DNA of 64,000 nucleotides from Acidobacteriota bacterium (GCA_041494445.1 JBGQAU010000001.1:24797-88796); one strand, 5' to 3'. Shown: positions 29,574-43,877, counted from the stretch's first letter. The notes: a model not told the origin generated them from the sequence alone. A program made the numbers and translations.

Positions 29574-31670
29574 ATGGCAGCGAACGACCCGAAGCGAGGC
29601 GAGGGCGAGACCCGCCGCCTCCATCCTGCGGCTTATCGCGAGCTCGAGCCCGGCGAGACCTACGAGCCGTTCGTGCCTTCCGGCGCCGCGGTGCCGGAGT
29701 TCACGTTCCGCTCGGTCTTCACCGGGATCGTGATGGTCCTGATCTTCTCGGTGGCCGCGACCTACTCGGGGCTCAAGGTCGCCCAGGTGTTCGAGGCGGC
29801 GATCCCGATCTCGATCCTGGCCGTGGGCCTGTCGGGTCTCTTCCGCAGGCGCAACTCGATCCTCGAGAACGTGATCATCCAGAGCATCGGGGGCGCGTCG
29901 GGGCTCATCGTGGCCGGCTCGATCTTCACGCTTCCGGCGCTCTACATCATGAACGTCGCGCCGGGAGCCGGGAGGATGCTCCTGACGGTGTTCGTGGTCG
30001 CGGTCCTGGGCTCTTCCCTCGGCCTCCTGTTCCTGATCCCTCTCCGGCGCTATTTCGTCGCCGAGCAGCACGGGAAGCTGCCGTTCCCCGAGGCGACGGC
30101 GATCAACGAGGTCTATATCACGGGGGAAGCCGGCGGCGAGCAGGCGAGAACGCTGCTCCTCGCGGCGGGTGTGGGCGGGATCTACGACTTCCTCGCCACC
30201 TCGGTCCGGGCGTGGTCCGAGATCGTGAACTTCCAGTTCCTGCCGTTCATGAAGAACCTGGCGGACAAGTACAAGGCCGCGGTCAGCGTGAACGCGGTCG
30301 CGATGATCGTCGGGCTCGGCTACATCACCGGCCTAAGGTACTCGGCGATCATCTGCGCCGGGGGCCTGTTCTCGAACCTGATCATGGTCCCGCTGATCTA
30401 CCACTTCGGCCAGTACGTCCCCTCGATCTCCATTCCGCCGGCGCCCCTGCCCGGCGTTCCCGGGTTCATCGCGGACATGAGCGCCGGGAACATCTTCCGG
30501 CTTTACGCCCAGCGGGTCGGCGTCGGGGCCATGGCGGGCGCCGGCATCATCGGGATCCTGAAGGCGCTCCCCACCATCGCCAGCGCGTTCTCGCTGGGAT
30601 TCAAGCAGATCTTCCGCCCGCACGCCCACGCCCAGGAGGTCAGGCGCACCGACCGCGATCTCAAGATGAGCACGGTGATGGGCGGGATCGTGGCCGCGAC
30701 GCTCGCCGTCGGCGTGTTCTTCCTCGTGCTCCTGCGCCAGGACCCGGTCGCCGCCGGGAAGGCGCCTCAGATCGCGCTGACCGGCCTCGTGATCGCGTTC
30801 GTGTTCTCTTTCCTGTTCACCACCGTGGCCGCCCTGGCGACGGCCATGACCGGCAACAACCCGATCTCGGGCATGACCCTGGTCACGCTGATCATCGGCT
30901 CGACGGCCCTGGTCTCGGTCGGGCTCCAGGGCGAGTACGGGAAGTTCGCAGCGATCGTGATGGGCGCCGTGGTCTGCTCCGCCCTGGCGATGAGCGGCGG
31001 GTTCGTCACCGACCTCAAGGTCGGCTACTGGCTCGGCTCGACCCCGAGGTACCAGCAGATCTCCAAGGTGATCGGCACGCTGTTCGCCGCGGTCGGCGTC
31101 GCCCTGACCGTGCTCCTGATCCACCGCGCGTTCGGCAGGACGGACGCCGCCACGGGGCAGTTCGTCTCCGGCTTCATGAACACGCAAGTGGTGCCGGCGC
31201 CGCAGGCGAACCTGTTCGCCACGATCCTCTCCGGCATCTTCGACAAGCAGCCGGTGACCTGGCTCCTCTACAGCGTGGGCCTCGTGCTCGCGGTGCTCCT
31301 CGAGATGATGAAGATCCCGCCGCTGGCGTTCGCCATCGGGATGTACCTGCCGCTGCAGGTCAACACGCCGCTGTTCATCGGCGGCGTCGTCTCGCACTGG
31401 GTCGGGAAGAGCAGCAAGGACCCGAAGGTGTCCGAGGCGCGGTCCCAGCGCGGCACGCTCCTCGCCAGCGGGTTCATCGCCGGCGGCGCGATCATGGGTG
31501 TCGTCGGCGCGCTCCTGGTCATCGGCAAGGAGTACCTCTCGTTCCTGAACGTGGACCTCGGCGTGCCCGACAAGAGCGACACGCTGGGGCAGATCGTGAG
31601 CATCGTGATGTTCACCGGGCTGTGCCTCTTCCTCTACTTCGACTCGAGGCGCGCCAAGCCGCCGGCGTAG
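29574..31670 (+). CDS. OPT family oligopeptide transporter
   Basis: 698 aa, polytopic. The N-terminal pattern is EFTFRSVFTGIVMVLIFSVAATYSGLKV, with Gly-rich helices typical of OPT throughout. Confidence 0.85.
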   Translation: MAANDPKRGEGETRRLHPAAYRELEPGETYEPFVPSGAAVPEFTFRSVFTGIVMVLIFSVAATYSGLKVAQVFEAAIPISILAVGLSGLFRRRNSILENVIIQSIGGASGLIVAGSIFTLPALYIMNVAPGAGRMLLTVFVVAVLGSSLGLLFLIPLRRYFVAEQHGKLPFPEATAINEVYITGEAGGEQARTLLLAAGVGGIYDFLATSVRAWSEIVNFQFLPFMKNLADKYKAAVSVNAVAMIVGLGYITGLRYSAIICAGGLFSNLIMVPLIYHFGQYVPSISIPPAPLPGVPGFIADMSAGNIFRLYAQRVGVGAMAGAGIIGILKALPTIASAFSLGFKQIFRPHAHAQEVRRTDRDLKMSTVMGGIVAATLAVGVFFLVLLRQDPVAAGKAPQIALTGLVIAFVFSFLFTTVAALATAMTGNNPISGMTLVTLIIGSTALVSVGLQGEYGKFAAIVMGAVVCSALAMSGGFVTDLKVGYWLGSTPRYQQISKVIGTLFAAVGVALTVLLIHRAFGRTDAATGQFVSGFMNTQVVPAPQANLFATILSGIFDKQPVTWLLYSVGLVLAVLLEMMKIPPLAFAIGMYLPLQVNTPLFIGGVVSHWVGKSSKDPKVSEARSQRGTLLASGFIAGGAIMGVVGALLVIGKEYLSFLNVDLGVPDKSDTLGQIVSIVMFTGLCLFLYFDSRRAKPPA

Positions 31671-31699: not shown

Positions 31700-33427
31700 A
31701 TGCGCGCGCAAGAGGCTTCGCACCGCTTCCGCAGCGTCATCTTCCTCCTGCTGCTCGCGGCGGCGGTCGCGGCGGGGATCGGCGCGGCCGGCCCCGCGGC
31801 CCCTTCCGCGCGCCCGGCTCCCGGCGGGGGCGCGGTGGCGTCGGCGGCCCCCGCGGCCACGGAGACGGGTCTCCTGGTCCTCCGGGAGGGCGGCAACGCC
31901 GCGGACGCGGCGGTCGCCGTCGCGCTGGCGCTCGCGGTCGTCCACCCACAGGCGGGGAACCTCGGCGGCGGCGGGTTCGCCGTCGCGAAGTTCGGCGACG
32001 AGATTGCCGCTCTCAACTTCCGCGAGACGGCCCCCGCCGCGGCGACGCCGGGAATGTTCCTCGGCCCGGACGGGGCCCCTGTTCCGGAAAAGTCGCTCGT
32101 GGGGCCGCTCGCCGCGGGCGTACCGGGGTCGCCCGCGGGCCTCTTCGAGCTTCACCGCCGGTTCGGGCGGCTTCCGTGGAAGAAGGTCGTCGCGCCGGCG
32201 GTCGGCCTCGCCCGCGATGGATTCACGGTTACGGAGCGGTTGTCCCGGGCGATCGCCGAGGACCGCATGCTCCTGGCCCGCTTCCCGGAGACCGCGGCGG
32301 TCTGGTTGCCGGGAGGCAAGCCTCCGGCGACGGCATCGAGGATGCGGCTTCCGCGGCTCGCGGAGGCGCTCGAGGATTACGGCCGACGCGGCCCCGTAGC
32401 GCTGACGCGCGGCCGCGCCGCCAAGGCGATCGAGGCGGCGTCCCGAAAGCACGGCGGCATCCTGACCGCGCCCGACCTCGCGGCCTATGCCCCGGCCTGG
32501 CGGGCTCCGGTTCGCTTCCGCTCGTTCGGCTGGGAGATCGCCTCGATGCCGCTCCCTTCCTCGGGCGGGATCATCCTCGGGGAGACCTTCGGCATGCTGG
32601 AGCGTCTCGGATTCGCGAGGCTCGGGAAGGACAGCACGGATCGCGCGCATCTTCTGGTCGAAGCCTGGCGCCGCGCGTTCGCCGATCGCTTTCTGCTCGG
32701 CGACCCATCCACGACCGGGGCCGACGCCCCGCAGCTACTCGACCCGTCCTGGCTCGACCGGCGCGCGCGGGAGATCGACCGCGCGCGTGCAACGAGATCC
32801 ATCGACGTGATGCCCTGGCCCGGCGGCGGCCCGGAGTCGGCGCAGACGACGCACCTGTCGGTGGTGGACGCGCGCGGGGACGCGGTGGCGATGACGGTCA
32901 CGCTCAACGACTCCTTCGGCTGCCGCCTGCTGGTCCCGGAGCTCGGCATCCTCCTGAACAACGAGATGGACGACTTCGCGGCGGCCCCGGGAAAGGCCAA
33001 CCTCTACGGCCTCGTGCAGGGCCCCGCGAACGCCGTCGGACCGGGCAAGCGCATGCTCTCGTCCATGAGCCCCACGCTGGCGTGGAAAGGAAGCGAGATC
33101 CTCGCGATGGGGTCGCCGGGCGGCTCCCGCATTCCGACGGCCACCGGACAGGCGCTGCTGCGGATCCTGGTGGACGGGGATTCGCTGCAGGGCGCGGTGG
33201 CCCACCCCAGGATCCACCACCAGTGGATGCCGGACGAGGTGGTGGGCGAGGCCGGAGCGCTGACCGGAGAGGTCCGTGCGGAGCTGGCGAAACGGGGTCA
33301 CACCTTCAAGGACGTCGCCGCGCTAGGCGAGGTCCACGCCGTGCGCCGCCGTGCCGACGGCCGTCTCGAGGCTGCCGCGGATCCGCGGGGACCTGGCGCC
33401 GCCGGAGTTCAGGAGCCGCGGAAGTAG
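31700..33427 (+). CDS. ggt: Gamma-glutamyltranspeptidase
   Basis: Signal peptide, GGNAADAAVA, the autoprocessing Thr in AQTTHLSVVD, and GSPGGSRI. Confidence 0.9.
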   Translation: MRAQEASHRFRSVIFLLLLAAAVAAGIGAAGPAAPSARPAPGGGAVASAAPAATETGLLVLREGGNAADAAVAVALALAVVHPQAGNLGGGGFAVAKFGDEIAALNFRETAPAAATPGMFLGPDGAPVPEKSLVGPLAAGVPGSPAGLFELHRRFGRLPWKKVVAPAVGLARDGFTVTERLSRAIAEDRMLLARFPETAAVWLPGGKPPATASRMRLPRLAEALEDYGRRGPVALTRGRAAKAIEAASRKHGGILTAPDLAAYAPAWRAPVRFRSFGWEIASMPLPSSGGIILGETFGMLERLGFARLGKDSTDRAHLLVEAWRRAFADRFLLGDPSTTGADAPQLLDPSWLDRRAREIDRARATRSIDVMPWPGGGPESAQTTHLSVVDARGDAVAMTVTLNDSFGCRLLVPELGILLNNEMDDFAAAPGKANLYGLVQGPANAVGPGKRMLSSMSPTLAWKGSEILAMGSPGGSRIPTATGQALLRILVDGDSLQGAVAHPRIHHQWMPDEVVGEAGALTGEVRAELAKRGHTFKDVAALGEVHAVRRRADGRLEAAADPRGPGAAGVQEPRK

Positions 33428-34099: not shown

Positions 34100-34651
34100 T
34101 CACTCCACCAGCAGGATCGCGTAACGGTTCATCGGCTGGGACGGATCGGTCAGCACGTCGAGCGGATACCCGACGGCGTGGGCGGTCGAGAAGAGGTCCA
34201 CCGCCAGCCCCTCGGGCGTGGGGCGGGCCGAGCCCGGCAGGCGGCAATCGCCCGGCCGCCCGACGCACTCCTCGCAGTGAGGGCAGCTGCCCATGAGGAG
34301 CATGAACGCCTTGCGATGACCGGAGAGGAACACCGCCCGCTCGAGCGCGAGGAGCTCCGCGTTGAGAGGCCGCGACCACCGCTTGCGTTCTTCCTCGTCC
34401 GGGGCGGCCTTCACGAAGCGGAAGATCGCCGCTTCCGCGTACTCGCGAATGAAGCGCTCGCACTCGGCGACGGACGGGTTATTGGGAGGGCACGCCACGT
34501 TGGTGCCGTACTCGGGGCATCCGTACTGGCACTTCATGCGGACCCAGTGGGCCACCACGATGTCGGCCGCGCGAAGCCAGCGGAAGTCCTCGAAGCCGTG
34601 TTCTCGAAAGAGCCTTTCTAGAGGCTCCCGATTCGTCGTGGCGACTTGCAT
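34100..34651 (-). CDS. DUF2284 family Cys-rich metal-binding protein
   Basis: MKCQYGCPEYGTNVACPP and GSCPHCEEC motifs. The start is ATG 34651 (MQVATTN). Confidence 0.7.
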   Translation of the reverse strand: MQVATTNREPLERLFREHGFEDFRWLRAADIVVAHWVRMKCQYGCPEYGTNVACPPNNPSVAECERFIREYAEAAIFRFVKAAPDEEERKRWSRPLNAELLALERAVFLSGHRKAFMLLMGSCPHCEECVGRPGDCRLPGSARPTPEGLAVDLFSTAHAVGYPLDVLTDPSQPMNRYAILLVE

Positions 34652-34690
34652 TCTCGCTCTCCCTGCGCGCTCGCGGCGCGGCATGGAACG

Positions 34691-35563
34691 CTAGAGAGCC
34701 GGCTTCGCCACGAGGTCCAGCTCGACCGTCAGCCTCGCGCCCTCGCGGGAAACCGAGCCGAACTTCCCGGCGCGATCCTGGAACACGAGGCGTCCGTCGC
34801 CCGTCGAGAGCACCTTGAGGAGCGGGTCGAGCCCCCCGCGGACGTGGGCCAGCGCCCCCGCGGCGGCCTCCGGCGACGGGTAGTCGGCGATCAAGAGCGT
34901 ACGCGTGCCGGATCCCGTCTGCCGGTACTCGCCGGCGACCGCCGTGACCCTGCCGCCGAGGAGCAGGAGGTCCCCCTCGCCGAGCGCCCCGGCGACGGCC
35001 TGGAGGCCGTACCGGCCGCGGACGAGCCGCACCGACGAGGTAACCAGACCCTCCTTCGGGAGCAGCGCCATCGCGGCGGGCGGCTCCGCGGTCGGGATCC
35101 GCGAGGCCACGAACCGCCCGAACTCGAGAAGGGCCGGCGAGACCTCCGGCGTCCCGGCGTCGTTGTTGACGAGCACGTAGTAGCGCCCCTTCACGAACGC
35201 GAGCTGATATCGGCCATAAGTGTGCCGCTCCGAGAAGCCGGAGGCCGGGGTCTCCTTACCGCACTTCGAGAGGTAGATCCCCCAGGCCGCGACCGGGTCG
35301 TCCATCCGGTAGACCTCGAGGACGATCTCCACCTCGCCGCGATGGAAACGTGCCAGGGTCAGCGCATCGAACCCCAGCTCCAGGAAGAGCTCGGCGCCGC
35401 CGTCGATGTGGCCGTAGAGCTCGGCGCCTTTGAAGGCCCGCGGGGCCTCGACCCGGCTGAAGCCGGTGAGAAAACCGTCCGGAGGAACGAGCGCGGGGTC
35501 GCCGTCGGCGCGCGCTGCGGCGGCCGCCAGGAGGAGGAACGCCGCCGCCAGCGCGCGCCTCAC
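34691..35563 (-). CDS. Secreted protein of unknown function
   Basis: GTG 35563 overlaps the stop of the upstream gene (GTGA). The signal peptide is VRRALAAAFLLLAAAAARADG. The body has ordinary globular composition (YGHIDGGAELFLELGFD...YYVLVNNDAG). Confidence 0.65.
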   Translation of the reverse strand: MRRALAAAFLLLAAAAARADGDPALVPPDGFLTGFSRVEAPRAFKGAELYGHIDGGAELFLELGFDALTLARFHRGEVEIVLEVYRMDDPVAAWGIYLSKCGKETPASGFSERHTYGRYQLAFVKGRYYVLVNNDAGTPEVSPALLEFGRFVASRIPTAEPPAAMALLPKEGLVTSSVRLVRGRYGLQAVAGALGEGDLLLLGGRVTAVAGEYRQTGSGTRTLLIADYPSPEAAAGALAHVRGGLDPLLKVLSTGDGRLVFQDRAGKFGSVSREGARLTVELDLVAKPAL

Positions 35564-36792
35564 GCTTCGATCCGGACGAGGCGGATCTTCGTGGGATCGC
35601 CCACCCCGAGGCCGAGCTTCTCCGCCTGGGCGAAGTAATCCGTGTAGCGCGGGTGGTCGACGACCTTGATCTCCATCGCCCGCCGCTTTTCGGTGATCTG
35701 GTCGTGGCCGACCCGGTCGACGGCGAAGGGGTCCGTCGCGAAGTACAGCGAGCGGAGCGGGTAGACGAACTTCTCGTTGAACATCGGGCCGTCGTCGTAC
35801 TGCGCGCGGATCCCGTCGATCACGTTCAGCACCAGCTTGTCCCGCACGGCCGGCGCCGCCAGGACCTCGGTGCAGACCCTGAACCCAAGCGGCGCGTGGA
35901 GCCGGCCGGTGTTGCAGATCGCGCCGTACCCCAGGTTCTTCGTGGCCATTGAGATCCCGGGCCCGGCGTTCTTGAACACGGCGACGTTGACGATCTTGGT
36001 CAGCCGCTCGGTGACCAGCTTCCCGAAATAGGAGAATTCGTCGTTGAACACGTGCTGGTTGAGATAGAACTCGTCGTCCTTGTAACCCGGGACCCCCTTC
36101 CCGACCACCCCTTTCGCGAAGTAGCGGGCGCTGCGATCGAAATTCCCGGCGCTGACGTGGTCCCCCTTCGCGTCGCGGAAGCTCTTTCCCTCGTCCACCA
36201 TCGTCTGGAGCGATTCGATCCTCACGCCCGGGAAACGCTCGGCGGTGAACCCGGCTTGCTTGAGCATGTCGTCGAACCGGTCCCAGATCACGATGTTCCC
36301 GCGGGGGATCCCGTTCTTCTCGAGCCAGGCGATCAGCGCCGCCACGACCTCGGGCTTGCTGCACATGAGCGGGGGGCCGACCGGATTGACCTTGATCCCG
36401 ACCACGTCGCTGCGGTCGAAGAGCATCCGGAAGCTCTTCTTCATCCCCTTTCCCGTGAGGGTCGTGATCCCCTTATCGACCATCTCCGCGACGACCTTCG
36501 CGTCCACCTTGTCGTCCTTGAGGCAGCGCGCGTCGGTCACCTGGACCACGCGCCCGGGGAATGGGCCGGGGATCGCGTGGGGCCCCTTCGGAACCTTCAT
36601 GAAATCCGCGAGGTTCGTCTCGACGTCGGCGGCAGGCTTGGGCGGGGGCGCTCCTTCCTCCGCGTGGAGCGCGGGGATGCCCAGGACCGCCCCGCCGGCG
36701 GCGACCGCGGACGCGGTGCCCAACGCCTTGAGGAAGTCGCGGCGGTCCACGCCGAGGACGGGTTTCATCGACGTGTAGCGATTGCGCCTCAT
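35560..36792 (-). CDS. Tat-exported DUF362 domain protein
   Basis: Twin-arginine signal GVDRRDFLKALGTASAVAAGGAVLGIPALHA, DUF362 core SDVVGIKVNPVG, and C-terminal FATDPFAVDRVG. Confidence 0.75.
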   Translation of the reverse strand: MRRNRYTSMKPVLGVDRRDFLKALGTASAVAAGGAVLGIPALHAEEGAPPPKPAADVETNLADFMKVPKGPHAIPGPFPGRVVQVTDARCLKDDKVDAKVVAEMVDKGITTLTGKGMKKSFRMLFDRSDVVGIKVNPVGPPLMCSKPEVVAALIAWLEKNGIPRGNIVIWDRFDDMLKQAGFTAERFPGVRIESLQTMVDEGKSFRDAKGDHVSAGNFDRSARYFAKGVVGKGVPGYKDDEFYLNQHVFNDEFSYFGKLVTERLTKIVNVAVFKNAGPGISMATKNLGYGAICNTGRLHAPLGFRVCTEVLAAPAVRDKLVLNVIDGIRAQYDDGPMFNEKFVYPLRSLYFATDPFAVDRVGHDQITEKRRAMEIKVVDHPRYTDYFAQAEKLGLGVGDPTKIRLVRIEA

Positions 36793-36827
36793 CGGATTGC
36801 CCTCCCGCCTCGTTGTACGGGGCCGGC

Positions 36828-38360
36828 CTACCACGAGTTCTGGAGCGGCCCGATCTCTCTCTCGACGGCGTCCAGCACCTCGCAACGCTCGACCGCCGCC
36901 TTCATCGCGTTGTGGTCCGGGAACAGCGGCCGGTCCACGTCGAGGTGCGCCACCACCTTGCGGATCGCGGCGTGCGCGGCGCGCGTGCCGGCGCCGGGCG
37001 TGAACTCCCGGAAGTCGAGCCCCTGCGCGGCGGCGATCATCTCGATGGCAAGCACCCCCCGGGCGTTGTCCAGGATCTGCTTCGTCTTGAGCGCCCCGTT
37101 CATCCCCATGCTCACGAAGTCCTCCTGGTCCGCCGCGGCCGGGATGGACTGGATGAAGGACGGCATGCTCAGGATCCGCTGCTCGACGATCAGCATGTCC
37201 GCGGTGTACTGGCTCAGCATCAGGCCCGAGAACATGCCGGCTCCCTTGGTCAGGAAGGCGGGCAGCCCGACGGAGAGCGCTGGGTTCGTCAGCCGGTTGA
37301 GCCGGCGCTCGGAGAGGACCGACACCATGGTGATCCCGGCGCCGACCATGTCGAGGGGCATGCTCACCGGGGTTCCCTGGAAATTCGCCCCGGTCAGCAC
37401 CCGATTCTCCTCCTGGATGAAGATCGGGTTGTCGGCGACCGCGTTCAGCTCGATCTCGAACTGCTTCCTCGCGTACGCCATCAGGTCGCGGAGCGCGCCG
37501 ATCACCTGCGGGGTCGAGCGCATCGAGTACGCGTCCTGCACCTTGACCTTGAGCTTCCCGGTAATGAGGTCGGAGCCGGTCATCACCTTCCGGAGGTTCG
37601 AGGCGCAGGTGACCGCCCCCTTGAACCCGCGCAGCTCGTGGAGCTTGGCGTCGTACGGCTTCATGTTCGCCAGCAGCGCCTCGAGGGTCATGGAGGCGGT
37701 GATCTCCGCCTGCTGGATCCAGCGCTCCGTGTCGTAGAGCAGAAGGGAGCCGATGGCGGTGATCAGGTTGGAGCCGTTGATCGCCGCAAGCCCGTCCCGG
37801 GCCTGGAGACCGGGGATAGGGATCCCCGCCTTTTCCATCGCCGCGCGGGTCGGCATCCTTTCGCCCCGGTAGAAGCTCTCTCCCTCGCCCATCAGGGACA
37901 GGGCCATCTGGCTCATCGGCGCCAGGTCGCCGCAGGCCCCGACGCTCCCCTTCTCGCACACCACGGGGGTGACCCCGCGGTTCAGCATCTCGACGTACGT
38001 CCCTGTGATCTCCGGACGGCAGCCGGAATAGCCGTTCGCATGGACGTTGATCCGGCTGAGCATCGCGGCGCGGGCGTGCTCCACCGGGATCGGATCGCCG
38101 ATGCCCGCGGCGTGGTTGTAGATCAGGTAGCGCTGGAACTGCTGCACCTGCTCGTCGTTGAGCACCACCTCGGAGAACTCGCCGATCCCCGTGTTGACGC
38201 CGTACATGATCTCGCGGGCCTCGATCTTCTTCTGGAGCATCCCACGGCATTTCTTGATCTTCTCGAGGGACTCGGGCGCCAGCGCCACTTTCTCTCCGTG
38301 GCGCGCCACCTTCACCACATCCTCGATGCTCAGGCTCTTTCCGTCGATCATCACGGGCAT
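36828..38360 (-). CDS. Aromatic amino acid / histidine ammonia-lyase family (MIO enzyme) homolog with an Ala-Cys-Gly triad
   Basis: 510 aa. MYGVNTGIGEF, YNHAAGIG, GSVGACGDLAPM (canonical is GSVGASGDLAPL), QDAYSMR and NPIF. Confidence 0.85.
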   Translation of the reverse strand: MPVMIDGKSLSIEDVVKVARHGEKVALAPESLEKIKKCRGMLQKKIEAREIMYGVNTGIGEFSEVVLNDEQVQQFQRYLIYNHAAGIGDPIPVEHARAAMLSRINVHANGYSGCRPEITGTYVEMLNRGVTPVVCEKGSVGACGDLAPMSQMALSLMGEGESFYRGERMPTRAAMEKAGIPIPGLQARDGLAAINGSNLITAIGSLLLYDTERWIQQAEITASMTLEALLANMKPYDAKLHELRGFKGAVTCASNLRKVMTGSDLITGKLKVKVQDAYSMRSTPQVIGALRDLMAYARKQFEIELNAVADNPIFIQEENRVLTGANFQGTPVSMPLDMVGAGITMVSVLSERRLNRLTNPALSVGLPAFLTKGAGMFSGLMLSQYTADMLIVEQRILSMPSFIQSIPAAADQEDFVSMGMNGALKTKQILDNARGVLAIEMIAAAQGLDFREFTPGAGTRAAHAAIRKVVAHLDVDRPLFPDHNAMKAAVERCEVLDAVEREIGPLQNSW

Positions 38361-38540
38361 GGGTTGTCTCTCCCAGGAACGAACGCTCGCGCGATCGGTA
38401 TCGCGGCCGGAAAATTGGGGAACAGGGTACTACAAGCGGAACGACCTTTCCGCCCCGCGTGCAGCGTGGCACGCGCGCACGACGATCCGCTCCCTCCGGG
38501 CTCACGCGAGCATCCGGGGGACGGCCCCCGGACCCCCGTG

Positions 38541-38584
38541 GCCACCCGTTGCAACGGCGGCAAACCGCCGTCGCAACGGGCGGC
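38541..38584 (-). other. 20-bp stem-loop, fully paired only as minus-strand RNA
   Basis: gccacccgttgcaacggcgg / caaa / ccgccgtcgcaacgggcggc. The two imperfect positions are A-C mismatches on the plus strand but G-U wobbles on the minus strand, which is the transcribed strand. Confidence 0.6.
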
Positions 38585-38650
38585 TACTTCAAGAAGACCC
38601 GGATCCATCACCCGACTCCCGCCAATGCTCTCAAGAAGGACCCGCGCGAA

Positions 38651-38676
38651 GGATGCGTCGGTCCCCCGACGCATCC
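38651..38676 (-). terminator. Candidate terminator or processing hairpin downstream of the GT39 gene
   Basis: Perfect 11-bp stem ggatgcgtcgg / tccc / ccgacgcatcc, about 50 nt after the stop at 38726. There is no clear U-tract. Confidence 0.3.
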
Positions 38677-38725
38677 GTAGCGCGGGGGCGGGGGTCCGGG
38701 GGAGACCCCCGGATGCCGGCCCAGT

Positions 38726-40543
38726 TCAGGGGTGCGGGGAGTTCCGGAGCGCCTCCTCGACCTCCTTGAGCTCCCTGGCACTGCCCGCGCGCCGGGGATC
38801 GAGACGGAGGGCCTCGCGGAACGAGGCCTCGGCCGCGGGGAGGTCGCCGACCCTCCGGTACAGCAGGCCCAGGACGTGGCGGATGTCCGGCCGGCCGGGG
38901 GCGAAGTCGGTCGCGCGGCGGTAGAAGTCGATCGCCTCCCGGTCGCGCCCCTGCCGGGCAAGGACCTTGCCCAGCTCGACGTGGACCTCGACGTGGCCGG
39001 GATCCTGCCGCAGAGCCTCCCTCAGCTCATCCTCCGCCGCGCCGAGATCGCCCTCTTTCGCCAGCAGGACCCCGATGTTGAAGTGGGCGACCGACGAGCT
39101 TTCGGGCACCGCGGGCAGTCCTACCGCGGAGGCGACCCGGTACGCCCAGTGGTTGGCCGGTGCCCGGACCGGGAGATTGACGAGCGCGAGCGCCGCGGCG
39201 GCGAGGAGCGCGGCGCGCCCCGCGGCGGGCCGCAGGGACCGGTCACGGAGCCCCAGCCGGATCCTCCCCCAAAGCTCCACGGCTCCGAACCCCGCAAACG
39301 GGAGGAGGGCCGGGATCATCGCCATGCGGTACCGGGCGATCACGAAGAACAGGATCACCGAGAGGAAGTAGGCCGCGACGTAGACGAGGAGGCCCCGCGG
39401 CCAGCCGGGCCGCCGCCACGCGAGGATCGCGCCCAGGAGGCCCAGCGGCACCACGAGGCCGAACCCCGGAAGCGGCCACCGCAGGACGGGCGCGGTCTCG
39501 CGATAGGCGTAGTAGTCGAGATTGTCAGGAACCTCGTAGGCACTCCAGTAGACGCGGATCTTCCTCGACGTCAGCACGAGCCAGTCCACGGGATGGGACG
39601 AGATCCAGGACAGGCCCTCCCGAAACCAGTAGCCCGAGGTCTCGGCGGGATCGAGCCGGCGGCCGGTACGCCTCTCGGCCTCGGCGGCGAAGTCGCGCTC
39701 CTCATGCTTCGGATTCGTCCTCAGGAACGGCGGCGCCTCGTAACGGCCGGAGTGCGCGAGCGGGTTGTTCCCGATGTAGAAGTTCTGCCCCCCCTGCGCC
39801 GTCGTCAGGACCCACCGGCCCCCCACCCACCAGTTCCGCACCGCCGTCGTCCCCAGCACGACGACGGTGCCGAGGACGAGGACGAGCGCCGCCTTGAGCG
39901 CGCGCCCGCGCGTCGTGCCCTCCCCGAGTGCTTTACCGTCGAGGAAGACCCAGACCGCCAGCGCGGCGACGACGAGCAGGAGGTTCCCGCGCGACAGAAC
40001 GGAAAGCCCGAGCACGAGCCCGGTCGCGGCCCACGTCCGCAGGCGGCACGAGGCCACCGCGCGAGAAAGGGCCAGGAGGGCTGTGGTCGCGAGGAACACG
40101 TCCATCCAGGTCTTGAGGAGGATCGCCTCATAGTAGATCGACGGGAGATACGTCGCGGCGAGGAGGCCCGACACGATCGCCGCTCGCCGTCCGAACCACG
40201 GCGACGACGCCGCGAAGACCATGGGGGCGACGAGCGATCCCAGGAGAAGCTGCACGGCGACGGCGGGAACGTGGTGGACGCCGAACAGCGAGTAGAGCGC
40301 CCCAAGGAAATACGGGTAGAGGGGATCCTGGTAGAAGATCCCACCGCCCAGCCAGTCGCCCGCGGCGATCCTCTTCGCCCATTCGTCGAAGAAGAGCGGG
40401 TCGAGACCGAGGTGCGTGAAGTACTTCGAGTCGACGACCGTCGCGAGGTGGATCGCCCGCAGGGCGGCGGAGAGCAGGAACAGCGCGAGCGGCCACCCGA
40501 AGCGCGCCAGCGCCGCCGGGTTCCGCTGCCGAGCGTCCTCCAT
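38726..40543 (-). CDS. GT39/ArnT-PMT-like membrane glycosyltransferase with C-terminal TPR repeats
   Basis: A polytopic N-domain of about 450 aa is followed by TPR-like repeats (NIGVLLAKEGDLGAAEDELREALRQDP...). Confidence 0.75.
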   Translation of the reverse strand: MEDARQRNPAALARFGWPLALFLLSAALRAIHLATVVDSKYFTHLGLDPLFFDEWAKRIAAGDWLGGGIFYQDPLYPYFLGALYSLFGVHHVPAVAVQLLLGSLVAPMVFAASSPWFGRRAAIVSGLLAATYLPSIYYEAILLKTWMDVFLATTALLALSRAVASCRLRTWAATGLVLGLSVLSRGNLLLVVAALAVWVFLDGKALGEGTTRGRALKAALVLVLGTVVVLGTTAVRNWWVGGRWVLTTAQGGQNFYIGNNPLAHSGRYEAPPFLRTNPKHEERDFAAEAERRTGRRLDPAETSGYWFREGLSWISSHPVDWLVLTSRKIRVYWSAYEVPDNLDYYAYRETAPVLRWPLPGFGLVVPLGLLGAILAWRRPGWPRGLLVYVAAYFLSVILFFVIARYRMAMIPALLPFAGFGAVELWGRIRLGLRDRSLRPAAGRAALLAAAALALVNLPVRAPANHWAYRVASAVGLPAVPESSSVAHFNIGVLLAKEGDLGAAEDELREALRQDPGHVEVHVELGKVLARQGRDREAIDFYRRATDFAPGRPDIRHVLGLLYRRVGDLPAAEASFREALRLDPRRAGSARELKEVEEALRNSPHP

Positions 40544-40567: not shown

Positions 40568-41716
40568 CTACCCCTTCGCCTTCCCGACGAAGTCCCGGCG
40601 AAGGGTGTCGAGCATCCGGTCCCGCTGGTCGTAGAGGCGGCGGAGGGGGCGGGGCTCGTGGCGCGTCAGGGCGTAGGCGGCGAGAAGCGGCAGGACGATC
40701 GTGCCGTCGCCGTAAACCACCACCGTGTCCGGTAGCTTGTCCGGGTCCACCTTCCCCCACGAGACCGCCTCGCTCGGGGTCGCTCCCGAGAGCCCGCCGG
40801 TGTCGGGGCGCGCGTCGGTGACCTGGATGAAGTAGTCGTGCCCCTCCTCGGGAAGTCCGAGAACCTCCTGGATGTGGGGCTCGGTCTGCAAGACGAAGTT
40901 CTTCGGCGAGCCGCCTCCCAGGATCAGCACGCTCGAGGTCCCGTCGCTCTTCTTCGCCTCGTAGACGATCGCCGCGGTCTCGTTCACGTCGCGCGAGACG
41001 TCGATCCGCGGGCCGCGGCTCCTCAGCCACAGCTCGGCGACGTTCATCCCGATGGACGAGTCGCCGGGCGAGGAGGTGTAGCAGGGCACGCCGCACCGGT
41101 ACGCGGCGGAAAGCAGGCAGGTGTCCTGCACCCCCAGCTCGTCCTCGCGCGCCGCGAGGTACTTCCCGAGAAGGTGGTGCAGCTCGGCGGACGACATGTC
41201 TCGCTGGAACTCCGCGCCGAGCATGACCTCCCGCAGGTACGCGTCCGTCTTCAGGAGCACGTTGTAGTCGAACAGGACGTCGTAGATCCTGACGACCCCC
41301 TCCTGACGCAGGACGCGGTCGTCCACCTGATGGTCGCCGCGATGGAGCGCGAGGCCGAGCCCGAAGTGGGCGTCGTGGTAGAGGTTCGCCCCGGTGGACA
41401 CGATCCAGTCCACGAACCCAGCGCGGATCATCGGAACCAGCGCGGAGCGGCCGAGACCGGCGGGCGTCAAGGCTCCCGAGAGGCTCATCCCCACCCGGCT
41501 CCCGGGCTCGAGCATCCGCTCGACGAAGAGTCGCGCGGCCTTCTCCAGGCGCCCGGCGTTGAAGGCCAGGAACGCATGGTCCACGAGATCCGCGGCGCCG
41601 ACCCCCTTCCCGATCGGCTCGGGGTCGATCTTCTCGCCGGAAAGCCACCCGCTCTTGGAGTCGGACACGCTTCCCTCCCGACGACCCGGGCCGGTCGCGT
41701 CGTAGAAGGGCCGCAT
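40568..41716 (-). CDS. Deoxyhypusine synthase-like protein
   Basis: [23 protein letters not shown] and [11 protein letters not shown]. The start is ATG 41716, with GTG 41668 as an alternative. Confidence 0.75.
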
Positions 41717-41735
41717 CGTAACACGGGATGCTAAG

Positions 41736-43877
41736 ATGGCTTCCATGCTCCGCGGGAATCGGCTCACGAGACCGACGCTCGCCGCGCTGGTGCTGGCCGG
41801 AGCGGCTCTCTTCGCCTGCGGCCCGAGCGAGGCCCCGAAAATTCCCGTCTCGTCGGAGACCCAGGCCCCGCCGCGGTCGGGAAGCCGCCCTCCCGACGTC
41901 GTGCTGATCACGATCGACACCCTGCGCTACGACGCCACCGGTTTCTCGGGCGCGGGACGGGTGGAGACCCCCGCGTTCGACCGGCTAGCGTCCGAGGGGC
42001 GGGCGTTCCCGTCGGCGCACGCGCACGCGGTGATCACGCTCCCGTCGCACGCGTCCATCCTGACCGGCCTCTATCCGTACGAGCACGGGATCCGGGACAA
42101 CGCGGGGTTCGTGCTGCGCGAGGACATCCCGACCCTCGCGACGATCCTGAAGGGAGCGGGGTACGCCACCGGCGCGTTCGTCTCCTCGTTCACGCTCGAC
42201 GGGCGGTTCGGACTGAAGCGCGGGTTCGACGTGTACGACGACCGGTGCGAAGGTTTCTCGGGAGACCCCTCGAGGCTGGCCGAGCGTCCGGGCGACCAGA
42301 CGGTCGGGCTGGCGATGGCCTGGTGGGAGGCGCACCGTGACGGCCCGCGGTTCCTCTGGGTCCATGTGTTCACGCCGCACTTCCCGTACGACCCGAGGGA
42401 GCCTTTCAAGAGCCGGTACCCCGACGCGCCGTACTACGGCGACGCCGCTCTCGCCGACGACCAGATCCGGCCTCTGGTGGACGCGCTGGAGCACGTGCGC
42501 GACCCGAGCCCGCTCGTCGTGTTCACCGCGGACCACGGCGAGTCGCTCGGCGAGCACGGCGAGAAAAGCCACGGCGTCTTCTGCTACGAGGCGACGCTCC
42601 GGATCCCGCTGGTGCTCTGGTCGCCCGGCCGGATCGCCCCGGGCTCCGACCCGAGGCCCGCGCGGCACGTGGACGTCCTGCCGACCGTGCTCGAGATGCT
42701 TCGTCTCCCGGCCCCGGCCGGACTTCCCGGACGCTCGCTCCTCGCTTCCGCGGCCGGCGACGCTCCCAGCTACTTCGAGGCCCTCACCGCGTGGATCAAC
42801 CGGGGATGGGCTCCGCTGTACGGAAGGATCGAAGGGGGCCGGAAGGCGATCGATCTTCCCGTGCCCGAGCTGTACGACCTCAAGGCCGACCCCGGCGAGA
42901 AGAGGAACCTCGCCCGCACCAGCCCGGCCGTTCAGCGCGAGATCGCCTCCCGCATTCCGGCGGAGGCCCGCGAGGCGCCGGGTCGCGAGACCCCGAACCA
43001 AGAGGTCGTCGAGAAACTGCGGTCCCTGGGATATCTCGCGTCGGGTCCCGCCCCGGCGCCCGCCCGCTTCGACCTCTCCTCCGACCCTAAGAACCTGATC
43101 TTCCTCGACGACGAGGTGAACGACGCGGTGCTGCGCTACCGGAGGGACCGCGACGCCCCGGGAGCGATCCGCGCTCTCGAGTCGATCCTCGCGCGGGCCG
43201 CCGGCATGGCGAACGTGTACACGCAGCTCGCCCTGATCGAAGCCGAGCAGGGGCAAGTCGAGCGGGCACTGTCGGTGCTGAAGAAGGCGGTCTCGACGGG
43301 GGTAGGCGGCGAGAAGATGAAGATCCAGCTCGCCCGGGGCTTGAGCCAGGCGGGAAGGGCGGACGAGGCGTGGGCGGCCCTGTCCGACTGCCTCGACTCG
43401 AAGAACCCGGTGACCCAGGAGGCGCTCGGCACCATCGCGGCCTCGCAGGGACGGTACGACGAGGCCCGGGCGAGGTTCGACAAGGCGCTCACACTGGATC
43501 CCACCTACCCCGCCGCGCGCGTGGACCTCGCGGTGCTCCTGATGAACCAGGGGCGAAGGGACGAGGCGAAGCGGATGCTCGAGCGCGCGCTGTCGGAAAA
43601 CGCGTACCTCCCGGACGGCTGGAACGCGATGGGGGTGATAAGGGCCCAGGAGGGCGACCTGCGCGGCGCGGTGGACGCGTGGGAGCGGGCGGTGCGGATC
43701 AACCCGAAGCTGACCATCGCCCTCATGAACCTTGCGGTCGCGTCGGAGAAGCTCGGGGATCGCGGGAAGGCGGTGGCCGCGCTGAGGCGGCTCGTCCCGA
43801 CGCTGCAAGGAGAGGCACGGCGAAAGGCGGAGGCGAAGCTCCGCTCCCTGGAGCCGAGCGCCCCGGCGGGGCCTTGA
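41736..43877 (+). CDS. Sulfatase-like (alkaline phosphatase superfamily) lipoprotein with C-terminal TPR repeats
   Basis: Lipobox [18 protein letters not shown] and [13 protein letters not shown]. The C-terminal 250 aa or so are TPR-like. Confidence 0.8.

Follow-up and report, generated by a model that had tools for sequence, protein, structure and literature searches.

Enzymes of the aromatic amino acid ammonia-lyase family use the cofactor 4-methylidene-imidazol-5-one (MIO), whose conserved precursor is an Ala-Ser-Gly triad (bioRxiv 10.64898/2026.04.22.720169; PMC8773403). The stretch of DNA considered here, 64,000 nucleotides from an Acidobacteriota bacterium (GCA_041494445.1, JBGQAU010000001.1:24797-88796; hereafter the window, with positions counted from its first letter), carries on its minus strand a gene for a 510-residue member of this family in which the triad reads Ala-Cys-Gly (ACG), a departure from Ala-Ser-Gly (ASG) in the letter only. 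Is this Cys an error, the mark of a different chemistry or another natural way to the same cofactor? We consider it probable that the protein is a HutH-type histidine ammonia-lyase (HAL; EC 4.3.1.3 type) that makes a normal MIO group from Ala142-Cys143-Gly144 by loss of H2S.

The codons of the triad are those reported in an earlier note on this DNA. Within 37880-37980 the minus strand runs in frame from gtg tgc gag, through ggg gcc tgc ggc gac, to cag atg gcc, with gcc (37937-37935) encoding Ala142, tgc (37934-37932) Cys143 and ggc (37931-37929) Gly144. The translation range given with them, 37901-37960, is one base off frame and should be 37902-37961, but the peptide itself, VCEKGSVGACGDLAPMSQMA, is present in the open reading frame (ORF) at 36828..38360. 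The residues on either side of the triad are conserved (GSVG-ACG-DLAP). A public database already holds an identical protein sequence under the name histidine ammonia-lyase.

Membership in the MIO family, and its HAL-like branch, was also part of the earlier proposal and is well supported. The Pfam family PF00221 (Lyase_aromatic) matches over its full length (residues 10-468 align with positions 1-466 of the 466-position profile; 542.6 bits, the cut-off being 27.3; E 9e-163), and the NCBIfam HAL subfamily model NF006871 scores 538.6, above its cut-off of 524. Scores with models of the aminomutase type are far under their cut-offs (TIGR03832, 373.4 < 501; TIGR04475, 345.6 < 800; TIGR04473, 155 < 1250), as are those with the NCBIfam models for PAL (phenylalanine ammonia-lyase) and for TAL (tyrosine ammonia-lyase). 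An AlphaFold2 (AF2) model built from a 61-sequence alignment reached a predicted local distance difference test score (pLDDT) of 92.7 and a predicted template modelling score (pTM) of 0.93. Foldseek comparison of this model with HutH of Pseudomonas putida (PpHAL; 1b8f, 1eb4) and with the tyrosine aminomutase (TAM) SgTAM (2ohy) gave template modelling (TM) scores of 0.92-0.94, which correspond to the all-helical HAL/PAL/TAM fold. The top sequence matches among solved structures were a Thermoplasma HAL (7tqr; E 1.3e-98), SgTAM and PpHAL. The protein is a HAL-family enzyme, most probably HutH, and homology would predict a tetrameric MIO enzyme.

To place the Cys we aligned the protein pairwise with PpHAL (PDB 1gkm chain B), whose catalytic residues have established roles. 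Identity is 38% over 435 aligned residues, the triad has the same numbering in both proteins (142-144) and Ala142, Gly144 and Asp145 are identical. Cys143 aligns with Ser143 of PpHAL, bearing out the suggestion that it occupies the position of the dehydroalanine precursor. Ten functional residues of PpHAL (Y53, H83, D145, N195, Q277, Y280, R283, F329, M382 and E414) have identical counterparts that are invariant in all 81 sequences of the clade described below (those of 80 genomes and the query); Y53, H83 and N195 keep their numbers, while the others become Q275, Y278, R281, F327, M381 and E413. Invariance was counted over these 81 sequences and, for some residues, over 18 outgroup sequences as well (Table 1). 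Of the PpHAL residues, H83 and E414 (and M382) are those to which mutagenesis assigns binding of the imidazole ring. Mutant structures of PpHAL listed by PDB title include D145A (1gk3) and F329A/G (1eb4 and 1gk2), and Y280F is also present. For the role of D145 and F329 in MIO formation we rely on the D145A and F329A/G structures and on Baedeker and Schulz (2002), a reference given in PMC8773403.

The motif YNHAAG, which had been pointed out as a His-containing and HAL-like selectivity region, lies at residues 81-86. His83 is indeed there, but it is not diagnostic on its own, since SgTAM also has Ser-His at this place. Glu413, the counterpart of PpHAL E414, is on sequence comparison the better marker of a HAL, as SgTAM has NQDV there. 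The preceding Asn82 is specific to the lineage of the window protein; most other HALs have Ser.

How common is the Cys? In the query's 90% cluster, each of the eight full-length members has ACG (one is the window sequence itself, and seven come from other contigs). The 120 best-matching homologues (80-91% identity; Acidobacteriota and Elusimicrobiota metagenome-assembled genomes [MAGs]) comprise 114 with ACG and 6 with ASG, and the motif L[IV]YNHAAG is found in every one. A broader sample was formed by the best 80 of at least 589 species-representative genomes with a match (69-84% identity, about 12 phyla). Here the triad is ACG in 68 genomes (TGC in 52, TGT in 16) and ASG in 12 (AGC in 7, AGT in 2, TCC in 3), so that the 81 YNH-motif sequences including the query divide into 69 with Cys and 12 with Ser. 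These genomes belong, among other groups, to Acidobacteriota, Elusimicrobiota, Eisenbacteria, Planctomycetota, Gemmatimonadota, Anaerolineae, Aminicenantes, Ignavibacteria/Bacteroidota, Cloacimonadota, WOR-3 and Myxococcota. Because the same Cys recurs across the 90% cluster, the homologues and the genomes, it lies beyond chance or error: Cys143 is real, neither an error nor an oddity.

We also examined the wider family through the 150 best representatives of 50%-identity clusters, together with the query. The triad is ASG in 123, Ser-Ser-Gly in 11, ACG in 9 and Thr-Ser-Gly in 1, and it is lost in 4 that read 'GSVGY---L' instead. Of the nine ACG sequences, one is the query itself and five are relatives or fragments from its lineage. 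Three others (P0193, P0200 and P0216) have ACG, yet are ordinary HALs with Ser-His, NFHG and EDH, and are unrelated to the YNH clade. A search seeded with P0193 recovered a Silvanigrellales-type clade in which 56 of 119 sequences have ACG and 62 have ASG, and which includes MAG proteins named histidine ammonia-lyase. The rarity of the Cys that the earlier note had implied is thus not upheld, as Cys is the normal state in the YNH clade, in hundreds of genomes of uncultured environmental bacteria, and turns up again among ordinary HutH proteins of an unrelated clade. Variants at the first position of the triad are about as frequent among the nearest representatives as Cys at the second, with Ser-Ser-Gly in 11 of the 150 (e.g., P0130, P0142, P0146 and P0156) and Thr-Ser-Gly in one (P0125).

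The direction of the exchange was inferred by Fitch parsimony on a neighbour-joining tree of the 81 YNH-motif sequences only, a reconstruction that is approximate because of the neighbour-joining topology. These sequences form one clade, for which Cys is ancestral, with nine independent changes from Cys to Ser, mainly on single tips. The codons agree with this direction. A change of one base would turn any of the 12 Ser143 codons (AGC, AGT and TCC) into TGC or TGT. For the codons of nine invariant Ser sites, taken from the same 12 genomes, the corresponding share is only 66%; likewise, AGY codons make up 75% at position 143 and 29% at the invariant sites. Since every Ser143 codon is a single step from a Cys codon, the Ser forms look recently derived from Cys. 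The nearest sister lineages, which have NFQG instead of NFHG, are mixed (ACG in P0121 and P0137, ASG in P0122 and P0123).

No other column co-varies with Cys or Ser within the YNH clade, nor in the Silvanigrellales-type clade or the representatives (C135, C114 and C38 were checked). Because the unrelated ACG-rich clade also lacks any column that tracks the exchange, Cys at position 143 is a recurrent natural alternative that needs no compensating change. The YNH clade does have three further cysteines that are more conserved than Cys143 (Table 1), of which C135 replaces, seven residues before the triad, a Pro that is widely conserved in other HALs. As the independent ACG proteins have neither C114 nor C135, these extra cysteines are not coupled with Cys143. 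Other residues specific to the clade are Y81, N82, M148-S149-Q150, Q328 and F415. Pairwise sequence identity within the clade is 65-95% (mean, 73%), with 151 invariant columns across about a dozen phyla, and in the same genome pairs its HAL differs less than does the urocanase next to it, HutU. For an enzyme of catabolism this is a remarkable degree of conservation, which suggests either strong constraint or a recent spread by horizontal transfer.

The neighbours of the orthologous genes were surveyed in 80 loci with 10-kb flanks by conserved-neighbour clustering. The only neighbours that carried information were hutU (6-7 loci in the clustering) and hutI (3 loci). Urocanase (hutU) lies directly downstream in six of them (L005, L007, L012, L031, L050 and L064), all with ACG and belonging to Elusimicrobia, Myxococcota, Planctomycetota and Anaerolineales. 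In L005, L007 and L012 an equivalog of HutI (imidazolonepropionase) follows further downstream. These neighbours in relatives, along with the invariance of H83, E413 and M381, support the conversion of histidine to urocanate. More generally, Cys143 would be a precursor equivalent to Ser because Cys and Ser interchange without compensation, the residues for cyclisation and catalysis are invariant and hutU and hutI accompany the gene in relatives. From these comparisons we infer MIO formation, H2S as the leaving group and histidine as the substrate. During folding, the amide nitrogen of Gly144 would attack the carbonyl of Ala142, and closure of the ring with loss of water would, as in PpHAL, be aided by Asp145 and Phe327. 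Beta-elimination at residue 143 would then remove its side chain, with release of H2S instead of H2O, and the product would be the same 4-methylidene-imidazol-5-one. In the mature enzyme, His83, Glu413 and Met381 would hold the imidazole ring and Arg281 the carboxylate, while Tyr53 and Tyr278 would serve as base and acid, so that ammonia and urocanate are released. A laboratory parallel may exist: Langer, Lieber and Retey reportedly found in 1994 that the S143C mutant of PpHAL matures to a fully active wild-type enzyme.

Several observations weigh against a histidine ammonia-lyase with an ordinary MIO group. The window protein scores 519.9 with the hutH equivalog model TIGR01225, narrowly under the cut-off of 539.15, and the L007 orthologue gives the same outcome with this model and with NF006871. 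Neither hutU nor hutI was found within the 64-kb window, and 74 of the 80 loci have no hut neighbour. The clade has invariants of its own near the functional motifs, namely N82 for Ser, Q328 for His and F415 for His (invariant) and C135 for Pro (near-invariant). Cys is held at about 85-95% though drift should, if the two were fully neutral, favour Ser, which has six codons against two, and some unexplained advantage of Cys seems likely. Four Cloacimonadota loci carry a tandem pair of co-directional HAL genes, the YNH-type gene first and a canonical HAL with ASG and Ser-His after it (Table 1), which suggests that the two copies are not redundant and hints at a division of labour; in one of these loci, L071, the Pfam score is 662 bits for the canonical copy versus about 540 for the YNH type, and the neighbours (chaperonin, PorV, T9SS cargo and TruA) gave no functional hint. 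Given the tandem paralogues and the strong constraint on the clade, a shifted specificity is conceivable. There is also the matter of direct evidence. The earlier note had allowed that Cys might turn out to be both common and already characterised in HutH orthologues; it is common, but our full-text literature search found no published biochemistry of any ACG protein and no mention of a natural Ala-Cys-Gly triad; the texts describe Ala-Ser-Gly alone as the precursor, and one citation of Langer et al. (1994) concerns Ser143. Ala-Cys-Gly is, apparently, a natural variant that is undescribed but predictable.

Most of these points could be accommodated by an enzyme with the same fold and a Cys-derived MIO group but with another job, such as a specialised paralogue whose substrate is not free L-histidine (e.g., a modified histidine) or an aminomutase. 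The missed equivalog cut-off, the clade-invariant substitutions adjoining functional motifs, the tandem pairs, the predominance of loci without a conserved hut neighbour and a conservation above that of the adjacent HutU would all fit such an enzyme. We nevertheless regard this explanation as rather unlikely, as H83, E413 and M381 do not vary, six loci of four phyla have hutU immediately downstream of the gene and three have hutI further on, and the aminomutase models remain far under their cut-offs (for TIGR03832, 373 < 501; for TIGR04475, 346 < 800).

The retention of Cys against drift might reflect active selection. A thiolate leaving group may give faster or fuller maturation of MIO, or an unprocessed Cys143, perhaps with C38, C114 and C135, may form a redox- or metal-gated switch of maturation or a distinct sulfur-containing prosthetic group. 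We think either possibility improbable. If one were true, the clade would offer a second natural route to a MIO-type cofactor, or a variant of MIO.

A more radical proposal is that Cys143 is not eliminated at all, and that the protein has no MIO group or has another group in its place (e.g., an imidazolone that bears a thiol, or Cys as a nucleophile) with a different chemistry. It would explain why Cys is kept in about 85-95% of the clade; relatives without MIO do exist, among them the 'GSVGY---L' forms and ergothionase (6s7j), and the near-invariant C38, C114 and C135 could in principle build a site. But Ser is found without other change in 12 species of the clade and in half of the unrelated HutH clade, the cyclisation residues D145 and F327 are invariant, C114 and C135 are missing from the independent ACG proteins and relatives known to lack MIO have lost the triad altogether instead of exchanging Ser for Cys. 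The reported activity of the S143C mutant of PpHAL likewise speaks against it. This makes retention of the thiol very improbable. The earlier note had left two options side by side; formation of MIO by H2S loss is the one that we favour, over a Cys that marks a different chemistry. Finally, a sequencing or assembly error would have to change only one base to make tgc of a Ser codon (agc or tcc), but it is practically out of the question: Cys is present in the seven full-length members of the 90% cluster that come from other contigs, in 114 of the 120 homologues and, encoded by TGC in some and TGT in others, in 68 of the 80 genomes.

A link between Cys and an anaerobic lifestyle was considered and dropped as unsupported. 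The lineages of the YNH clade are, we presume, mostly anaerobic, but the second clade rich in ACG is Silvanigrellales-type, and Silvanigrellales are not known to be strictly anaerobic.

Comparison with known systems places the window protein close to PpHAL (1b8f, 1gkm), with which it shares the fold (TM 0.93), the functional residues and the numbering of the triad. Wild-type PpHAL has Ala-Ser-Gly, whereas in the clade of the window protein Cys is natural and ancestral; further differences from PpHAL are the clade-specific residues, the score narrowly under the hutH equivalog cut-off and, in this window, the lack of hut neighbours. The probable HAL of Thermoplasma acidophilum (7tqr) and the HAL of Trypanosoma cruzi (6v6h) have the HAL fold in common with it but carry Ser-His and NFHG where it has Asn-His and NFQG; in both entries an X, for a modified residue, stands in place of the triad, so the precursor cannot be read from them. 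The aminomutases SgTAM (2ohy, 2rjr) and Pantoea AdmH (3unv) have the same fold and kind of cofactor and show that position 1 of the triad tolerates change (in AdmH the triad is Thr-Ser-Gly). Their variation is at position 1, whereas that of the window protein is at the eliminated residue, position 2. SgTAM, moreover, lacks the HAL Glu of the QED motif and has Asp-Val there, while the window protein has Glu413.

Enzymes without MIO form a further point of comparison. Ergothionase (6s7j) has the PF00221 fold (TM 0.94) and acts on imidazole-containing substrates, as do the MIO-less trimethylammonia-lyases of Shewanella (bioRxiv 10.64898/2026.04.22.720169). The four representatives in which the triad is replaced by 'GSVGY---L' (P0203, P0220, P0251 and P0263) resemble them in this respect and are, judged by the triad, presumably MIO-less relatives. 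The window protein, in contrast, keeps a three-residue triad, D145 and F327.

These results show Ala-Cys-Gly to be the default in one widespread and highly conserved HAL clade and a 50:50 polymorphism in another. It is a natural counterpart to the engineered S143C and, if our reading is correct, the maturation step releases H2S. Nothing is overturned by this, as the cofactor and the reaction are most likely ordinary. Motif-based annotation is affected, in that signature patterns requiring Ser-Gly would miss ACG proteins. A comparison of C143S with the wild type would be a simple system for any effect of the leaving group on the rate or completeness of MIO formation, which matters to those who engineer PAL, TAL and HAL enzymes.

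Table 1. Positions of the predicted HAL gene, its functional residues and neighbouring genes in the window, and of the tandem HAL genes in four Cloacimonadota loci
Feature	Position	Strand	Basis or remark
HutH-type aromatic amino acid ammonia-lyase gene, 510 aa	36828..38360	minus	ORF list, PF00221, NCBIfam, predicted fold
Start codon ATG	38360-38358	minus	510-aa HAL-type ORF
Stop codon TAG	36830-36828	minus	510-aa HAL-type ORF
Putative Shine-Dalgarno-like GGGAGAG	38368..38374	minus	7 nt 5' of ATG; from sequence reading
Cys38	38247-38249	minus	near-invariant, 80/81
Tyr53 (PpHAL Y53), catalytic base on lid loop	38202..38204	minus	invariant in clade
Asn82-His83 of YNHAAG 'selectivity' motif (His83 = PpHAL H83)	38112..38117	minus	alignment
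Cys114	38019-38021	minus	near-invariant, 78/81
Cys135	37956-37958	minus	near-invariant, 80/81
Predicted MIO-precursor triad Ala142-Cys143-Gly144 (gcc tgc ggc)	37929..37937	minus	codon reading and PpHAL alignment
Asp145 (PpHAL D145), MIO cyclisation	37926..37928	minus	invariant, 81/81 clade and 18/18 outgroup
Asn195 (PpHAL N195)	37776..37778	minus	alignment
Gln275...Tyr278...Arg281 in QDAYSMR motif, carboxylate binding and catalysis	37518..37538	minus	invariant
Phe327 (PpHAL F329), MIO formation	37380..37382	minus	invariant
Glu413 of QED motif (PpHAL E414), imidazole-binding	37122..37124	minus	81/81 clade and 18/18 outgroup
OPT-family oligopeptide transporter	29574-31670	plus	
Gamma-glutamyltranspeptidase	31700-33427	plus	directly after OPT transporter
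DUF2284 predicted metal-binding protein	34100-34684	minus	
DUF6599 protein, signal-like N-terminus	about 34691-35596	minus	start uncertain
DUF362 protein, twin-arginine signal	35560-36792	minus	35 nt after HAL stop
PMT_2-type glycosyltransferase fused to TPR repeats	38726-40543	minus	upstream of HAL gene
Deoxyhypusine-synthase-family protein	40568-41920	minus	upstream of HAL gene
Sulfatase fused to TPR repeats	41736-43877	plus	upstream of HAL gene
Tandem YNH-type and canonical HAL genes, L028	120-1646, 1680-3209		
Tandem YNH-type and canonical HAL genes, L051	3097-4623, 4653-6176		
Tandem YNH-type and canonical HAL genes, L069	4746-6272, 6342-7862		
Tandem YNH-type and canonical HAL genes, L071	8724-10250, 10270-11793		

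Other candidates from the survey of neighbours were rejected. The top clusters proved to be shadow ORFs inside the HAL gene itself, and histidine kinases and ABC ATPases clustered only through the large size of their families. In the window, the HAL gene is directly followed by a co-directional string of genes on the minus strand (34100-36792), an arrangement common only to one close relative, L001; the DUF362, DUF6599 and DUF2284 proteins and the glycosyltransferase were for this reason rejected as functional partners. Neither tRNA genes nor Rfam matches were found in the 64 kb, and scans of the window or gene region for promoters and terminators gave nothing relevant. The window is about 70% G+C throughout and has many long shadow ORFs, opposite real genes or in their other frames, two of which run across the HAL gene (36813-38924 on the plus strand and 35560-38505 on the minus strand). 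The OPT transporter and gamma-glutamyltranspeptidase genes, a few kilobases from the HAL gene, form a plausible module for the uptake and breakdown of peptides or glutathione.

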